This document shows positions 41,285 to 48,207 of a DNA stretch of 64,000 bases, piece after piece (within the stretch, counting starts at the first letter, position 1; each line of letters opens with the position of its first letter). Under the pieces are notes generated by a model. That model saw only the letters and a program-made list of their open reading frames with translations. It did not search any database and was not told the origin of the DNA. Where the stretch lies: positions 40,888 through 104,887 of the forward strand of contig JACPAV010000007.1 of assembly GCA_016180645.1 (NCBI GenBank), in the 5' to 3' direction. A program made the position numbers and the translations under genes. This DNA is from Nitrospirota bacterium (GTDB taxonomy: Bacteria; JACPQY01).

Positions 41285-41511
41285 GGATTGCGAGAAAACA
41301 AAGTTCACATGTTGGGCCGGCATCCGGCCTTCCCAGCCGCCTGGGCGGAGCGGGCAGCCGCCCCCTACGAAGGATCTCCTATCTTGGTAGGGGAGCAGCT
41401 TTAGCTGCTCCCTTTTCTCTTGGGAGGACCCAAAGGTCCTCCCCTACGCGATCGGCCTTGGCCGCGCTCTTCGCGCGATTGAGCAGCTAGTTTCCTCGCA
41501 ATCCCCTAGCT
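41281..41511. mobile_element. MITE-like element bounded by 11/12-bp inverted repeats (agggattgcgag … ctcgcaatccc) containing a third, diverged nested-hairpin repeat (41345-41470)
   Basis: Terminal inverted repeats read directly. Inner hairpins gggagcagctttagctgctccc and gaggacccaaaggtcctc show compensatory changes relative to copies 1 and 2. Confidence 0.5.
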
Positions 41512-41920
41512 GCATTTGGCCACGCCCCGCCTGCGCCGGACGACCTACACCGATCCGCATTGACCCTTCCCGGCAGTGGGTGATAAAGTGGGGGCTGTGG
41601 GAAAGTCGCTTTCGGCCGGGCGTGATGCCGGCCGCACTCTCGGCCTTCCTGGCGGACAGGATGTCAGCGATGGTGGGGAGAGTGCGTTATCGAATCGATA
41701 TCTAAAGCACGCGGAGCAACTGCATGCGAACTTCTATGAAGATTTCTTGAAAGTCCGGGAGCTCCGGCTACAGGCCGAAGACCTCAAGACGCTCGTACTG
41801 AAACTCCGATCCCTTTTGAATCAGAACGGCGCCCGTTAGCTCCCTTCAACGAAAAACATCCGAACCGATAGGACCCTGAAATGTCGGCAACGACGCATCA
41901 GAGGCCAACGCGACGGAAGC

Positions 41921-42254
41921 CAATTGACACGGAATCAGCCACCGGTAGAATTCGACGCATGGCTCCCATGACGATTCATTTCGCGGCGCAAAGGCCGAAC
42001 CACTGTTCTACTCGCCGTCCCCGAAGCCTGGCGAAGGGGGTCGCCCCCGGAGCGAAGCGAATGGGGTCGTTTGTCAGGCATGGACACCGCAACGGGGGCA
42101 AAACGGGGAATCAAATCGAAAATATCGGCTGAGATCGCTGACATGATAGTAGGCATCCGGCCTGCCCGCGCCCTTGGCAGGCGGGCAAAACCGCCCGAAC
42201 ACAATCCCGATACAAGAATATCAGGGCAAAATGCCAAGCTAATCAATGGTTAGG
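41921..42254. repeat. direct repeat A (~334 bp): consensus sigma70 promoter TTGACA-16-TAGAAT at 41924..41951 followed by a long conserved leader; partner copy at 45572..45846
   Basis: Two long blocks nearly identical between copies; copy A carries a ~60-bp internal insertion. Ends ~8 nt before the ATG at 42262. Confidence 0.85.
41924..41951 (+). promoter_or_regulatory. consensus sigma70-type promoter (TTGACA, 16-nt spacer, TAGAAT)
   Basis: Both hexamers match consensus, 6/6 and 5/6. Confidence 0.6.
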
Positions 42255-42261
42255 TTGTTCA

Positions 42262-42774
42262 ATGACACCTAGGAAACGTCTTCGTCGAGTGGCAATTCTT
42301 TGCTGCCATTGCCTCCGCAATCTGGCGTTTTACAGGGCCGGTTGGAGAGGAAGGACGCCTATCTTTGGGGGGCAGTTCTGGAGAAGTGTGAACGGAAACT
42401 TCCTAGACGTTTGTGTGTTGGAGTGGTGCAAGCTGTTTGGAGATGAACGCGGGAAACACTATTGGAGGAAAGTCATTTCCCACCCAGACGCATTCTTCCA
42501 AGAGTTGTTAGGCGAAATCGGCGTAGCCGAGTCCAAACTCGACGAACACATCAAAGAAATGCGGACATACAGGGATAAATTTGTGGCTCATCTCGACGAT
42601 GAAGAGGTAATGCAGATTCCAACTCTCACAATCACATTGAAGAGTGTGTCATGCCTTTATGACTATCTGCTCGCCAATGAAGGTGAGCCGGAGTTTTTTT
42701 CTGACGCCATAAAATATGCATCAACCTTCTATAGACGATTTCTTGTAGAAGGCGAAAAGGCATACAAAGCATGA
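42262..42774 (+). CDS. hypothetical protein in lower-GC DNA with an Rx5H (RDKFVAH) HEPN-like motif
   Basis: Compositionally distinct from flanking DNA (visibly more A/T). Motif …TYRDKFVAHLDD…. Confidence 0.4.
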   Translation: MTPRKRLRRVAILCCHCLRNLAFYRAGWRGRTPIFGGQFWRSVNGNFLDVCVLEWCKLFGDERGKHYWRKVISHPDAFFQELLGEIGVAESKLDEHIKEMRTYRDKFVAHLDDEEVMQIPTLTITLKSVSCLYDYLLANEGEPEFFSDAIKYASTFYRRFLVEGEKAYKA

Positions 42775-42911
42775 AAGAGCAACATGACCACGCGTTCAAC
42801 TCGACCTCGGCGACGCTGCGCACCCCCTCGGCTGGCTAGCTCGAAGGTGAGGCGCCCGAGGAGGGTGACCGTGACACGGGAATACCCAGCGCTCATGAAC
42901 GACTGGATCTC

Positions 42912-43870
42912 ATGAAGATTCGACGGATCAACGCTGACAAGCCGCACCTCTGGAAGGCCGACATCGCGGCCTCCGTTGACCAATTCAACCAGTGGTTCAT
43001 GCGCTTCGCGCCCGAGGCGTTCCGATCCACGCGGGTGGAGACGACCGAGCACGTCAAAGCGGCGCTTGTGGCAACCCAGAACCTGCGCGCCCTGAACGCT
43101 GCCACGTTGAAGGCCAACCCGGGCGCACTCCCGACTCTCCGCATGTGCACCGCCCCGCCGCTCGCCGTGGACCGCCTGATCGGCTTGGCCGACGCGAGCA
43201 AGAATCTCGTCGGCCGGATGGAGAAGGGTAAGCTGCCGACCAAGATTCAGGCTGCGGACCTTGACGCGGAGTTGACCAAGCTCTGCCGCATTCTGTCGCG
43301 GCTCTTGGACCGGGACATATTTCCCTGGCTCGACAACCGGACGGCCCCGACCGACCATGAGCGCGACCGGGCCTCAACGATCGTTGCCGATCGGCTGTGC
43401 AGCGCGGTGGCGAACCCGATCGTCCGCAACGCTCAGGAGCAACGACAACTCGCATTGATCGGCGACCATCTCGACGGCCGGGGCTATCGCAAGCAAGCCC
43501 ACCCGCCGGGCAAGCCGCTCACGCAGATGGAACCCGGCACGTATGCCTTCCGCATGAATCTGGCCGTCGGAAAGGCTCTCAAAGTCAACATCCCGGTCGA
43601 CGTCGTGATCTAGCCCAAGAGTCTCCGCAAAGACCGGCTGCCAATTCTGATCGAAGCCAAATCCGCGGGTGATTTCACGAACACCAACAAGCGCCGCAAG
43701 GAGGAGGCAACCAAGATCCACCAGTTGCAGGCAGCCTACGGCGCGACCGTGGTGTTCGTGCTCTTCCTCTGTGGATACTTTGGCAGCGACTATCTGGGCT
43801 ACGAAGCTGCCGAGGGGATCGACTGGGTGTGGGAGCACCGAATCGAGGACCTCGCGAAGCTGGGGCTGTA
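42912..43870 (+). pseudogene. type II restriction endonuclease (PD-(D/E)xK) interrupted by an in-frame TAG at 43611..43613
   Basis: The frame continues through the TAG for 85 more codons to a TAA at 43868, which abuts the MTase ATG. The amber falls between …NIPVDVVI (PD-like) and …[11 protein letters not shown]… (ExK). Confidence 0.55.
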
Positions 43871-43875
43871 ACACC

Positions 43876-45472
43876 AATGATCACGCCACGCGAGAACCCG
43901 ATTGAAGCTCGACGACAGGCCATTCAGGCGGCGCTCGACGCAAGGAAGTCGGCCGCCGAGAGGAACCGCCTCGGTCAATTCGCGACTCCCAACGCCCTCG
44001 CGATCGAGATTGCCCGCTACGTTCGGTCCATTGCGGGCCGCCGTCTCCACGCGGTCCATTTCGCCGACCCCTCCGTCGGCACGGGCAGCTTCTACAGCGC
44101 CGTGCTCGCCGTTTTCGGCTCCGAGCAAATCGAGAACGCCGTCGGCGTCGAACTCGACCCCGGCTTCTGCGATGCCGCCCGCGACCTGTGGGCGGAAGCG
44201 GGCCTTGATGTGATGCAGGGCGACTTTACCCGCATTGTCGCAAGTGCCGGTTGCCCGGTCGCACCTAACCTGATCCTCGCCAACCCGCCCTACGTCCGGC
44301 ATCATCACTTGGAGCGCAAGGACAAGGAACGCCTGCAAGCCCTCACGCACCGGATGGCGGGTGTCGAGGTCAATGGCCTCGCGGGTCTATACGTTTACTT
44401 CCTTCTTCTCGCCACGGCGTGGATGGAGGAAGGCGGCTATGCCGCGTGGCTTATCCCCTCCGAGTTCATGGACGTCAACTACGGCGCGGTGGTCAAGCGC
44501 TTCCTGACGGACCGCGTGGAGCTTCTCCGCGTTCATCGTTTTGACGCCGAAGATGTGCAGTTCGGCGACGCCTTGGTCTCATCCGTCGTCTTGGTGTTCC
44601 ACAAGGCGCCACCGCCACGCGATCATGCCGTGGAGTTTACCTTCGGTGGCACGATCGCTGAGCCGCATGCCCGCGAATCCGTCACGCTGGACCGGCTGCG
44701 CGACTCACGCAAGTGGACCGCGTACCCCGAGCACGATCGGAATGACCGTCGCTCGTCCACGAACGGCGAAGGGCCAACGCTTGGTGACTTGTTTCGAATC
44801 CAGCGCGGTATCGCCACCGGTAACAACAAGTTCTTCGTCCTTGACCGGTCCGACGCGGCCAAACGCGGCCTACCGAAGAAGTTTCTACGCCCGATCCTCC
44901 CCAGCCCGCGCCACCTCAAGGCGACGATCATCGATGCCGGCGAAGATGGCTACCCGCTGATTGACCCACAGTTCTGCGTTGTCGACTGCGAGCTGCCGGA
45001 GCATGTTGTTGCGGCCAAGTACCCGGCCCTTTGGGCATACCTGCAAACCGCCGAGGCGCTGGGGATCAAAGATGGCTATCTCGTCGGTAAGCGTTCGCCG
45101 TGGTACAGGCAGGAGCAACGGTTGCCTGCACCCTTCCTTTGCACCTACATGGGTCGGGGCGCCGAAGAAAAGCAACCATTTCGCTTCATCTGGAACCGCT
45201 CGGCTGCCATCGGGACAAACCTCTACCTCATGCTGTATCCACAGCGCACCCTCGCTGCGAAACTGCGGGCACAACCAGAGTGCGGCGCAGCGATCCACGA
45301 TCTCTTGCGATGTGTCACCGGGCACGAGCTGCGCGGAGAGGGACGTGTCTACGGCGGTGGGCTCAACAAGATAGAGCCGAGTGAGTTGGGCCGCATTTCG
45401 GCGGCACCGTTCATCGCGCGTTGGCCAGAGCTGAAGTCCGCTGTGCAGCGCCAGGTAGGGCTCTTCGGGTGA
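43876..45472 (+). CDS. N6-adenine DNA methyltransferase (gamma-class, NPPY; TaqI/Eco57I-like with C-terminal target-recognition domain)
   Basis: Motif I …[11 protein letters not shown]…; motif IV …[14 protein letters not shown]…. Confidence 0.85.
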
Positions 45473-45571
45473 CTCGCAGCAGAATCGGAGTGGGCACCCC
45501 CGGGGTGCCTAGCAACCGGTTGCGCGGATGGTCCGCTGCGCGGCCCGCCGGGTAGAGGAACCTCAGAGAGT

Positions 45572-45846
45572 CAATTGACACGGAATCAGCCTCCGGTAGA
45601 ATCCGACGCATGGCTCCCATGACGATTCATTTCGTCGTCCCCGGAGCGAAGCGAATGGGGCGCTTGTCAGGCATGGACACCGCAACGGGGGCAATACGGG
45701 AATCAAATCGAAAATATCGGTCGAGATCGCTGACATGATAATAGGCATCCGGCCTGCCCGCGCCCTTGGCAGGCGGGCAAAACTGCCCGAAAGCAGTCCC
45801 GATATCGCCTTGTCAGGGCAAAATGGCAAGTTAATCAATGGTTAGG
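45572..45846. repeat. direct repeat B (~275 bp) with consensus sigma70 promoter at 45575..45602
   Basis: Matches 41921..42254 apart from the insertion in copy A. Confidence 0.85.
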
Positions 45847-45862
45847 GGGCGAGACATACTCT

Positions 45863-46234
45863 ATGGATTACGTTGCCTTCCATAACAAGCAAGGCCGGCC
45901 TGTCGCATGGATTGGCGATAACCAGGACTACCCGTCAATCTTTCTGTTCAACGGTAAGCCTGTTGCGTGGATAGCCGATGACTGCGTCTATAGCTATTCC
46001 GGAAAGTACTTGGGTTGGCTCCAGGACGGATGGATACGGGACAGAAACGGTCACGCCGTGTTCTACACCGGCGAGGCTTCTGACGGTCCTGCCAAACCTG
46101 CTAGACAGGCTCGACCTGCTCGCGGGGCTCGTGGTGCGCGACCCGCGCGTGGCGCGCCCGAGGCTCGACCAGCAAGACCTGCGCGCTCAACATCTTGGTC
46201 ACCACTCAGCGATGAGTCGTTCTTTGAGCAATAG
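45863..46234 (+). CDS. hypothetical protein with three internal G(K/R)PVAWI…Y…GK(Y)LGW repeats and a PAR-rich tail
   Basis: Repeats visible in MDYVAFHNKQGRPVAWIGDNQDYPSIFLFNGKPVAWIADDCVYSYSGKYLGWLQDGWIRD…. Driven by the repeat-B promoter. Confidence 0.4.
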   Translation: MDYVAFHNKQGRPVAWIGDNQDYPSIFLFNGKPVAWIADDCVYSYSGKYLGWLQDGWIRDRNGHAVFYTGEASDGPAKPARQARPARGARGARPARGAPEARPARPARSTSWSPLSDESFFEQ

Positions 46235-47062: not shown

Positions 47063-47623
47063 GTGATCCAACTCTACCAAGCCGGCGGCGCGGGCGACTT
47101 CGCCATCCTCCAAGATGCCTGGACTCATGAACAGTGTCGACTTCTCTTCGAGAACGCGGGGCGTCTTCTTAATGAACGCGTGCACTCGCGAGCCGCCGAG
47201 CTCCTACGAGCCGTACCGTTTCGAGTCGCTGATGCAACGAACCATTTCAATGATGAGTTCTCGCTACTGCACGCTGTCGTACCGCTTGCGGAATATGAGC
47301 AGCTTCGCCGTGGGCAGGACGACCCGGTTAATCGGCAGGCGGTACGACAGATCGCCGCCGTATTGTCCGAACTCGGAACGCCGATCCGGTTCATAGCAAT
47401 CGAACTAGCCTTGGAAGCGCCAGTGCATCCGGCCACGCGGGCCGGTGGCGGTCTGAAGCAATCGGAGGTCAACAAGCTCGTATCGAGGTACATCGGCGTC
47501 TCGGGGGGCTACCTGGGTGATTTCTCGTATCGAAGCCACCATGAGTTCTACATCGAGCTGGATCTCGATATTGACCCCTACAACTACGATGGGACCACCC
47601 GCGAACGATTCACCAGGTTCTGA
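47063..47623 (+). CDS. hypothetical protein (second gene of the module)
   Basis: 186-aa ORF; ends 15 nt before the next ORF. Confidence 0.4.
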   Translation: MIQLYQAGGAGDFAILQDAWTHEQCRLLFENAGRLLNERVHSRAAELLRAVPFRVADATNHFNDEFSLLHAVVPLAEYEQLRRGQDDPVNRQAVRQIAAVLSELGTPIRFIAIELALEAPVHPATRAGGGLKQSEVNKLVSRYIGVSGGYLGDFSYRSHHEFYIELDLDIDPYNYDGTTRERFTRF

Positions 47624-47637
47624 GCGAGAGCTCGCCC

Positions 47638-48207
47638 GTGGTACAGGCCAAGATCCTCGAAGGCGTCTTGGCTCGCTTCCCAGTTAGCAGCTCCGAATTT
47701 CGTACATCGGACAGGGCTGCGGAGATTCGACGCTGGATCGCGCGTCTCCGCTCTGGCCCCGAGGTCGAACAGCCGACCCTGCGGATCACCAGCGAGGTGG
47801 TGGAACGCGCTTTGTTGGATGCCCAACAGCTCGTTCGCGCCACCGGAGCTACTAGTGGGGTGGATAGGCTCCACACCGCGCTTCACGGCTATCTCCGCGT
47901 AGTCTGCGGTGACGCGAATATCAAGGTCGACGGTGATGCGTCGCTGACCGACCTCTTCAAGCAGCTACGGGAGAGACATCCAGCCTTTCGCGATCTTGGC
48001 CCCCGGAGCGGCGACATCCTTCGAGTTCTCAGGGCGCTGGGGAGCATTCTTGACACACTGAATCCCTTACGAAACAAGGCCAGCCTCGCGCACCCAAATC
48101 CAGTGCTCCTTCCCGGGCCCGAGGCGATGCTGGCCATCAACGCGGCCCTCTCAATCCTGCACTACGTTGATGAAAAGGTGCACCGTAATGCAACTGGAAG
48201 CAGCTAG
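47638..48207 (+). CDS. Abi_C/HEPN-like protein (RNKxxxxH motif), candidate abortive-infection effector
   Basis: …LDTLNPLRNKASLAHPNPV… fits the Rx4-6H HEPN motif with the R-N dipeptide typical of the Abi C-terminal family. Confidence 0.45.
   Translation: MVQAKILEGVLARFPVSSSEFRTSDRAAEIRRWIARLRSGPEVEQPTLRITSEVVERALLDAQQLVRATGATSGVDRLHTALHGYLRVVCGDANIKVDGDASLTDLFKQLRERHPAFRDLGPRSGDILRVLRALGSILDTLNPLRNKASLAHPNPVLLPGPEAMLAINAALSILHYVDEKVHRNATGSS

Follow-up and report, generated by a model that had tools for sequence, protein, structure and literature searches.

What does an in-frame amber codon signify when it falls between the two halves of the catalytic motif of a restriction endonuclease gene: has the gene been lost, or is the supply of a toxic enzyme being throttled at its stop codon? 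The question is raised by a locus in a 64-kb stretch of a Nitrospirota metagenome-assembled genome (MAG), hereafter the window, where two direct repeats bracket three genes, for an AbiU2-like HEPN protein, an endonuclease frame of the XamI family and an N6-adenine methyltransferase. The surroundings form a small defence islet, with a phosphoesterase gene on one side and oligopeptide-transporter ATPase genes on the other. The three genes and the codon at issue are the following.

42262..42774, + strand: AbiU2-like HEPN gene, 170 aa, low GC; weak PF18734 match, R104-x5-H110
42912..43871, + strand: pseudogene of a XamI-family (PF09572) Type II restriction endonuclease, 319 codons interrupted by a single stop
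43611..43613, + strand: premature amber codon, codon 234; CAG (Gln) in the closest intact copy
43877..45472, + strand: intact N6-adenine DNA methyltransferase, 531 aa, with an Eco57I-type MTase domain, FxGxG as motif I and NPPY as motif IV

The frame belongs to a single endonuclease on both sides of the amber codon. Its N-terminal 233 aa match positions 1-182 of the PF09572 (RE_XamI) profile (E 1.8e-62, 211.5 bits), and the 85 codons past the TAG match positions 188-256 of 256 (E 2.1e-32, 113 bits), the cut-off of the profile being 25 bits; since these 85 codons match the end of the same profile, reading past the TAG is not fortuitous. Homologues exist in the thousands, and the top 120, which are 83-96% identical, are all full length (318-392 aa) rather than ending near residue 233. 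The three residues of a conserved PD...(D/E)xK site, D230, E248 and K250, are all encoded in the window; E248 and K250 occur in 120/120 of the closest homologues and D230 in 119/120, and the XamI family is placed in the PD-(D/E)XK superfamily in the literature. The 319-codon PD-(D/E)xK frame that had been proposed from the letters alone is thereby borne out. In a predicted structure of an intact homologue, of low confidence (mean pLDDT only 60) because the underlying alignment is shallow, strand 229-233 contains D230 and strand 245-251 contains E248/K250, after which come a helix and another strand, and the strand order of this model would be that of the canonical core; a sequence search of the PDB returned no solved relative. 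The prototype of the family, XamI, is an isoschizomer of SalI (GTCGAC) in REBASE. This hexamer is mildly under-represented in the window, with 13 occurrences observed and 19.5 expected.

At codon 234, Gln is found in 119 of the 120 closest homologues, Lys in one and a stop in none. The TAG, the only one in the frame, lies between D230 and E248-x-K250, just where the earlier note had seen it, and at the same codon CAG is read in L002, the intact DNA copy closest to the window (93.5% identical over 42847-45550). Because Gln is near-universal at this position and CAG stands in the nearest intact copy, the TAG is attributed to a single CAG-to-TAG transition; the window allele has no uninterrupted frame of ~319 codons and, since the nonsense codon occupies a near-invariant Gln position, the frame is classed as a pseudogene. 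Elsewhere it departs from columns that are at least 95% conserved among the 120 homologues only at N57. Downstream of the stop, 11 synonymous and 3 non-synonymous changes separate it from L002, a comparison in which constraint does not appear to have relaxed. As the rest of the endonuclease frame is undecayed, the nonsense mutation would be recent.

Translation would end after the beta-strand bearing Asp230, and the truncated endonuclease should be unable to cleave DNA because Glu248-x-Lys250 and the remainder of the PD-(D/E)xK core would be missing from it. A C-terminal fragment re-initiated downstream and complementing the truncated product was considered and rejected, since no potential start codon (ATG, GTG or TTG) occurs from the stop up to the ExK codons; the first in-frame start downstream, a TTG at 43725, is already beyond E248/K250.

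The methyltransferase (MBI2059331.1), on the other hand, is full length, with no gap in its alignment to an intact 531-aa homologue (74% identity). It matches the PADLOC MTase_II profile at E 3e-155 and carries an 11-residue motif segment together with NPPY, which agrees with its first description as an NPPY N6-adenine methyltransferase. Of the two components of a Type II restriction-modification (R-M) system, an intact cognate methyltransferase adjoining the endonuclease gene is thus present, whereas an intact endonuclease is not. The methyltransferase ATG had been said to abut the endonuclease stop directly, but it follows the TAA (43869-43871) after a spacer of 5 nt. Both this spacer and the R-then-M order are those of the intact copies L023 and L002, and the locus further resembles the XamI family of Type IIP R-M systems (PF09572 plus an Eco57I-type gamma N6-adenine methyltransferase) in that the joined frame matches the full profile and keeps D230, E248 and K250; it is unlike them in carrying a nonsense codon at Gln234 (119/120).

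These observations very probably describe a recent nonsense knock-out of the XamI-type restriction gene of an acquired R-M pair, leaving an orphan methylase between repeats that may derive from target duplication. A Type II XamI-family operon, R then M, has been gained horizontally by a Nitrospirota genome, and one C-to-T transition has turned Gln234 (CAG) into TAG. The intact methyltransferase would presumably go on modifying the genome as an orphan methylase. A sister copy (L027, from SRR22387837) argues in the same direction: it carries an independent 1-nt deletion at codon 220, 14 codons upstream of 234, and keeps CAG234 as well as an intact M gene. Recent inactivation, one of the two readings first offered for this codon, therefore gains support from the single transition at a conserved Gln, the scarcity of other decay, the intact M gene and the independently broken sister copy.

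Loss of the restriction enzyme with retention of the methylase is a common, ordinary fate of R-M systems. The locus is like other orphan methyltransferases that arose by decay of R (R- M+) in that M is intact and R broken by a point mutation, and in that the R gene has been disrupted once more, independently, in another sample; it is unlike them in standing at the earliest stage, with one mutation and no further erosion. As such it is one more Type II system at the first step of decay toward an orphan methylase, which matters little beyond annotation. A second independent knock-out of this highly mobile XamI-family module nonetheless supports loss of R as a recurrent escape route and, should the methylase be active, m6A would be present at the cognate site in the absence of restriction, a point of relevance to the methylomes of uncultured Nitrospirota.

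The TAG might instead not be the sequence of the dominant organism but an error of consensus calling or assembly, or the variant of a minority strain. The source is indeed a MAG, the difference amounts to one base, and a single read set seems to lie behind both available assemblies. However, the TAG recurs unchanged in an independent Logan assembly of run SRR12113431, so that two different assemblers agree over an identical 3,472-nt sequence that includes it. Substitution errors at the consensus level are rare with short reads. A gap in the locus-tag numbering suggests, in addition, that GenBank may also call the endonuclease a pseudogene. Taken with the agreement of the assemblers, this makes an erroneous or minority TAG quite improbable.

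Programmed read-through or suppression of the amber codon, the other reading first proposed, would provide a throttled and possibly condition-dependent supply of a toxic endonuclease. The locus has in common with such systems an in-frame UAG and a perfectly preserved frame beyond it, although an intact downstream frame is equally expected of a very recent mutation. The residue lost, Gln, is also the one that near-cognate read-through of UAG would insert, and the base after the TAG is C. In E. coli work, termination at UAG is comparatively weak when a C follows, and a near-cognate tRNA-Gln reading UAG would restore the wild-type residue. A trace of active endonuclease may thus conceivably still be made via tRNA-Gln. 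The comparison with programmed systems breaks down elsewhere: the stop is not conserved, being absent at 234 from all 120 closest homologues, and the allele is found on one contig of one sample only. TAG is moreover an ordinary terminator nearby, since it ends at least five well-supported genes of the window (dnaK, recA, GH31, phosphoesterase and SLT), among which the dnaK product matches the HSP70 profile to position 598 of 599. No tRNA, and with it no suppressor tRNA, was found within the 64 kb, and the frameshift that killed the L027 sister copy speaks for repeated loss of function, not for a conserved recoding signal. The idea of a programmed amber switch accordingly finds no support in these comparisons, and it is very improbable that the codon serves as one. 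Just as far-fetched is an amber that is leaky by design or selection, with UAG-C read at low frequency by a near-cognate tRNA-Gln, or by a suppressor encoded elsewhere, and the exact wild-type enzyme remade; if true, it would act as a stop-codon rheostat on a toxic gene, the attenuated restriction still protecting against phage while doing the cell less self-damage. Reassignment of TAG in the genetic code was considered separately and rejected, as many high-confidence genes in the window terminate with it.

If the endonuclease gene is a recent nonsense pseudogene, the question becomes how its operon came to lie between two repeats, in company with a HEPN gene. The HEPN ORF corresponds to MBI2059330.1/HYT87_06105, whose annotation begins at an internal GTG. 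Membership of HEPN_AbiU2 was judged by a profile match together with an R-x4-6-H motif. The ORF itself matches PF18734 (HEPN_AbiU2) weakly (E 0.001, 19.1 bits, under the cut-off of 26.8), 15 of the 33 scanned members of its family match it at E<0.01, and R104 and H110 are invariant in the family, giving an R-x5-H motif; a HEPN-like ORF between the repeats, as the earlier note had it, is consistent with these results. GC content is low over this gene (~45-49% over 42200-42800), whereas the R-M genes, at 60-67%, do not fall below the window mean of 59.8%. The lower GC once ascribed to the whole segment therefore holds for the HEPN gene only, and the repeat-bounded segment combines two parts of unlike base composition, the low-GC HEPN gene and the high-GC R-M pair. 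The repeats, their promoters and the gene that follows them are laid out as follows.

41918..42254, + strand: left direct repeat, 337 nt, with an insertion of 57 nt, part of which is a diverged tandem copy of a 27-nt hairpin unit
41924..41951, + strand: sigma-70-like promoter TTGACA-16-TAGAAT (11/12) at the 5' end of the left repeat
45569..45846, + strand: right direct repeat, 278 nt
45575..45602, + strand: sigma-70-like promoter TTGACA-16-TAGAAT (11/12) at the 5' end of the right repeat
45863..46234, + strand: 4-fold beta-flower protein gene (PF21784, E 1e-36), directly downstream of the right repeat

The two ~300-bp direct repeats first noticed in the letters are real: apart from the 57-nt left insertion the copies are 90-95% identical, and a 215-nt block aligns at a BLAST E of 1e-79. 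The window contains these two copies only. They do not belong to the R-M module, since L002 shares with the window only the interval given above and L023 only 42908-45488, L023 being devoid of flanking repeats. The description of the locus as a direct-repeat-bounded R-M islet hence stands as anatomy, with the reservation that the repeats lie outside the module, the homology of other copies ending before they are reached. Nor does either strand look protein-coding: plus-strand ORFs lose their frame after two 1-nt indels, while minus-strand ORFs have 47 codons in common, among them 9 amino-acid changes, before the frame is lost, and the repeat was treated as non-coding. On inspection it is also far too long for an integron attC site and has no paired core sites.

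Direct repeats of up to ~420 bp have been documented on either side of R-M systems, with R and M inside an insert of <20 kb, repeats of >30 bp and no other mobile-element genes among the defining features (Furuta et al., 2010; PMC2853133). The present locus agrees with these features, with 3.3 kb separating its repeats (278 and 337 nt) and, by profile search, no integrase or transposase domain in the three ORFs between them. By analogy with the "insertion with long target duplication" of R-M systems (Nobusato/Furuta/Kobayashi; PMC2853133), which it resembles in its short insert, long direct repeats and want of mobility genes, the repeats would be two copies of a promoter-bearing intergenic segment foreign to the R-M module, and the HEPN-R-M block would have inserted upstream of the beta-flower gene, duplicating the target region. 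Such an insertion is the likeliest of the origins considered, though it is put forward tentatively. The repeats are more diverged (~90% identity, hence ~10% divergence, with three indels) than most published cases, and the insert, to which a HEPN gene of different GC also belongs, is not obviously a single insertion. The published criteria further call for a repeat otherwise unique in the genome and for a related genome whose empty site aligns with one copy of it; searches with repeat-block queries of representative genomes and JGI metagenomes gave chance matches only and found no close relative of the locus and no empty site.

The same divergence and indels fit two homologous, non-identical parents better than a fresh duplication. 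The block may thus have arrived by Campbell-type integration of a circular HEPN-R-M-repeat molecule, or have inserted by chance between genome-specific dispersed repeats, which is a separate class in the survey of Furuta et al. (PMC2853133); in either event no target would have been duplicated. The repeat was, however, found nowhere else in the collections searched, which leaves both routes with no known donor or family, and it occurs only twice in the 64 kb. An origin of this kind is rather unlikely, if a closer contender to target duplication than the proposal that follows.

A function has to be weighed alongside an origin, since the repeats could be a portable promoter followed by a structured 5' leader RNA of ~230-290 nt that heads defence cassettes, which recombination between copies would swap or excise. 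An 11/12 sigma-70 promoter opens each copy, and the left one could drive HEPN-R-M. Each copy ends 8-16 nt ahead of the ATG of an unrelated defence-type gene, and homology to relatives begins, for the HEPN gene, 5 nt before the left repeat ends and, for the beta-flower gene, 14-17 nt past the end of the right one. In a two-sequence RNAalifold analysis all six substitutions located in predicted stems keep pairing, and most of the divergence between the copies falls in one hairpin loop. However, these are two copies only, with no compensatory double changes, and single-sequence folds are no better in energy than shuffled sequences (z -1.7 and -0.3). No Rfam family matches the repeats at gathering or at permissive thresholds (E up to 5), and a known RNA was rejected on these grounds. 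A conserved leader was likewise rejected, as nothing related occurs upstream of the homologues examined, at 8 HEPN and 4 beta-flower loci. Relatives of the repeat are also missing from the databases searched: a 22-mer gave two chance matches in representative genomes, one of them inside an ABC-ATPase motif; a 20-mer gave six chance matches in JGI metagenome contigs; none of three blocks matched a viral contig; and distant blastn returned nothing from plasmids and phages. A portable leader is therefore improbable. The 280-nt promoter-bearing repeat, which has no relatives in the databases searched, would lend the locus added interest only in the event that it turned out to recur as a leader or as a junction between cassettes.

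As for the gene downstream of the right repeat, its 3' partner is not conserved between the loci compared, and its PF21784 beta-flower domain is that of the "Cernunnos" anti-phage cassette.

Three plus-strand genes sit between two direct repeats, an arrangement proposed in the earlier note and borne out once the repeats were aligned and the ORFs located; a 4-fold beta-flower gene follows directly 3' of the right repeat.

41918-42254, left direct repeat, 337 nt
42262-42774, plus strand, HEPN-like ORF, 170 codons
42912-43871, plus strand, XamI-family endonuclease frame, 319 positions, single TAG at 43611-43613
43877-45472, plus strand, N6-adenine methyltransferase ORF, 531 codons
45569-45846, right direct repeat, 278 nt
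45863-46234, 4-fold beta-flower ORF (PF21784, E 1e-36)

The lower GC ascribed to the whole segment holds for the HEPN-like ORF (45-49%) but not for the R-M genes (60-67%, no lower than the 59.8% average of the window). Likewise, the methyltransferase is close to the endonuclease stop, as claimed, but does not directly abut it, since its start is 5 nt past the TAA of that frame. The source is a Nitrospirota MAG (204,950-bp contig, with neighbour proteins MBI2059328.1, MBI2059330.1, MBI2059331.1, MBI2059332.1 and MBI2059333.1), in which the HEPN-like, R-M and beta-flower genes and two small terminal genes form a compact defence islet (~41.9-48.2 kb), bounded by a phosphoesterase gene and opp-type (oligopeptide-transporter) ATPase genes. 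The two small genes adjoin each other at the islet end (47063-48207) and encode 186 aa with no family and 189 aa with an Abi_C/AbiJ-like C-terminus.

Sequence comparison identifies the split frame as a XamI-family Type II restriction endonuclease, a family catalogued as PD-(D/E)XK (PMC3045609, PMC3424549). The 233 codons 5' of the TAG match PF09572 positions 1-182 (Pfam, E 1.8e-62) and the 85 codons 3' of it positions 188-256 (E 2.1e-32), so that the frame continues as a nuclease beyond the stop, which separates the catalytic residue D230 from E248 and K250, as had been proposed. No solved structural relative was found by sequence search; modelling the closest intact homologue with AlphaFold, at low confidence (pLDDT 60, strand-strand-strand-helix-strand order), would put these residues at the places expected of the canonical core. 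The downstream gene is a full-length gamma-class N6-adenine methyltransferase (E 3e-155 against PADLOC MTase_II), with an Eco57I-type domain, an 11-residue motif and NPPY, and 74% gap-free identity to the 531-aa partner in an intact system. The family of the HEPN-like ORF consists of proteins of ~170 aa in which R104 and H110 (R-x5-H) do not vary; 15 of the 33 members scanned match HEPN_AbiU2.

Searching with the joined endonuclease translation gave thousands of homologues, of which the top 120 were compared. These are 83-96% identical, all full length (318-392 aa), and their sources include MAGs of Methylococcales, Terriglobia, Gemmataceae, Phycisphaerales and Deltaproteobacteria; such identity across unrelated phyla points to one R-M pair having spread horizontally, widely and very recently. 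Of these 120, 119 have Gln at codon 234 and the remaining one has Lys; none departs from E248 or K250, and 119 keep D230. Besides the stop, N57 is the only deviation of the window from columns conserved to at least 95%. The nearest intact DNA copy (L002, 93.5% identity over 42847-45550) has CAG opposite the TAG, and the change is thus a single transition. Downstream of the stop, 11 codon differences from L002 are synonymous and three non-synonymous, the latter at variable columns, leaving no trace of relaxed constraint. A fragment bearing the second catalytic half could not arise by re-initiation, since the stretch from the stop to the ExK codons has no ATG, GTG or TTG. Together with the full-length methyltransferase, these data support well the proposal that the restriction gene was recently inactivated, leaving a solitary methylase; the locus would be a further instance of a well-known kind, in which the restriction gene is lost and the methylase kept.

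A Logan contig of SRR12113431 is identical to window 42162-45633, TAG included, so the stop is reproduced by a second assembler. The 90% cluster of the truncated product also holds a 231-aa product from SRR22387837, encoded by a sister copy of the endonuclease (L027, 87-1045). Compared with L002 and with window 43510-43630, this copy has lost one nucleotide at codon 220 (GGA to GA), while CAG234 and the methyltransferase are intact. The deletion is independent of the TAG, and that this mobile endonuclease was knocked out in two different ways favours recurrent loss of function over a conserved recoding device. Near-cognate read-through of UAG inserts Gln, which here would be the wild-type residue; decoding of the amber in this way at a low level, or by a suppressor tRNA encoded elsewhere in the genome, is nonetheless very improbable. 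TAG is an ordinary terminator in the window, where it ends dnaK, recA and the GH31 hydrolase, phosphoesterase and SLT transglycosylase genes, all with full-length domain matches; the 64-kb window holds no tRNA gene; the truncated product with TAG was found on a single contig of one run (SRR12113431); and L027 lost its endonuclease by a deletion instead. The programmed amber switch also entertained earlier is, on the same grounds, not supported.

Identity between the repeat copies is 90-95%, leaving aside 57 nt inserted in the left one, two indels of a single base each and a hairpin loop that is strongly diverged; no third copy occurs in the 64-kb window. Within 41984-42066, the insertion holds a diverged (74%) tandem copy of a 27-nt CCCC...GGGG hairpin unit whose other copy comes after the insertion. 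Homology to L002 spans 42847-45550, and that to L023, a more distant intact copy without flanking repeats, only 42908-45488, which rules the repeats out as part of the R-M module. Loci with HEPN homologues align with the window from 42249 onward, 5 nt inside the left-repeat end, and those with beta-flower homologues from 45860-45863, 14-17 nt past the right-repeat end.

A functional leader element is one alternative for the repeats, both of which start with the same predicted near-consensus sigma-70 promoter (TTGACA-16-TAGAAT, 11/12); none of the 12 HEPN and beta-flower homologue loci carries the repeat, which excludes a conserved leader of the following genes. Folding energies are unremarkable, and the alignment shows no compensatory and six one-sided pairing-preserving changes, two copies being too few to judge covariation. 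The predicted transcription start coincides in both copies with the ATG of a short ORF (MAPMTIHF..., 41959-42132 and 45610-45738), whose transcript would be a leaderless message; its frames part after two 1-nt indels, and it is therefore probably not a conserved peptide. No Rfam family matches the repeats, and searches of 185,579 representative genomes, JGI metagenomes, IMG/VR, PLSDB and INPHARED yielded no true match. R-M systems with long direct repeats (up to ~420 bp) and without mobility genes make up the class of 'insertion with long target duplication' (PMC2853133), the structure of which is found here. However, the present repeats are more diverged than usual, the insert is GC-composite and no relative with an empty site was found, so this origin is put at somewhat below an even chance, with a Campbell-type or repeat-family origin as a further alternative. 

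The 4-fold beta-flower is the domain known from the anti-phage cassette 'Cernunnos' (bioRxiv 10.1101/2024.07.02.601686). The gene 3' of it shows no similarity to the partners in two homologue loci (L013, L016) and differs between loci. The beta-flower ORF is missing from the protein collection while both its GenBank MAG neighbours are present, and it thus seems unannotated in the deposited record.

After the phosphoesterase gene, two back-to-back GC-rich hairpins (41387-41447), the first with a T-run and terminator-like, stand between the arms of a 24-nt inverted repeat (41276-41299/41490-41513); a weak, sub-threshold Rfam match to a Burkholderia sRNA at these hairpins (E 0.96) is probably due to chance. 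Two palindromes are strongly under-represented in the window, CAGCTG (2 observed against 12 expected) and CTGCAG (3 against 11.9). For GTCGAC, the site of XamI and SalI, the deficit is only mild (13 against 19.5), and one such site lies 10 nt ahead of the amber codon.
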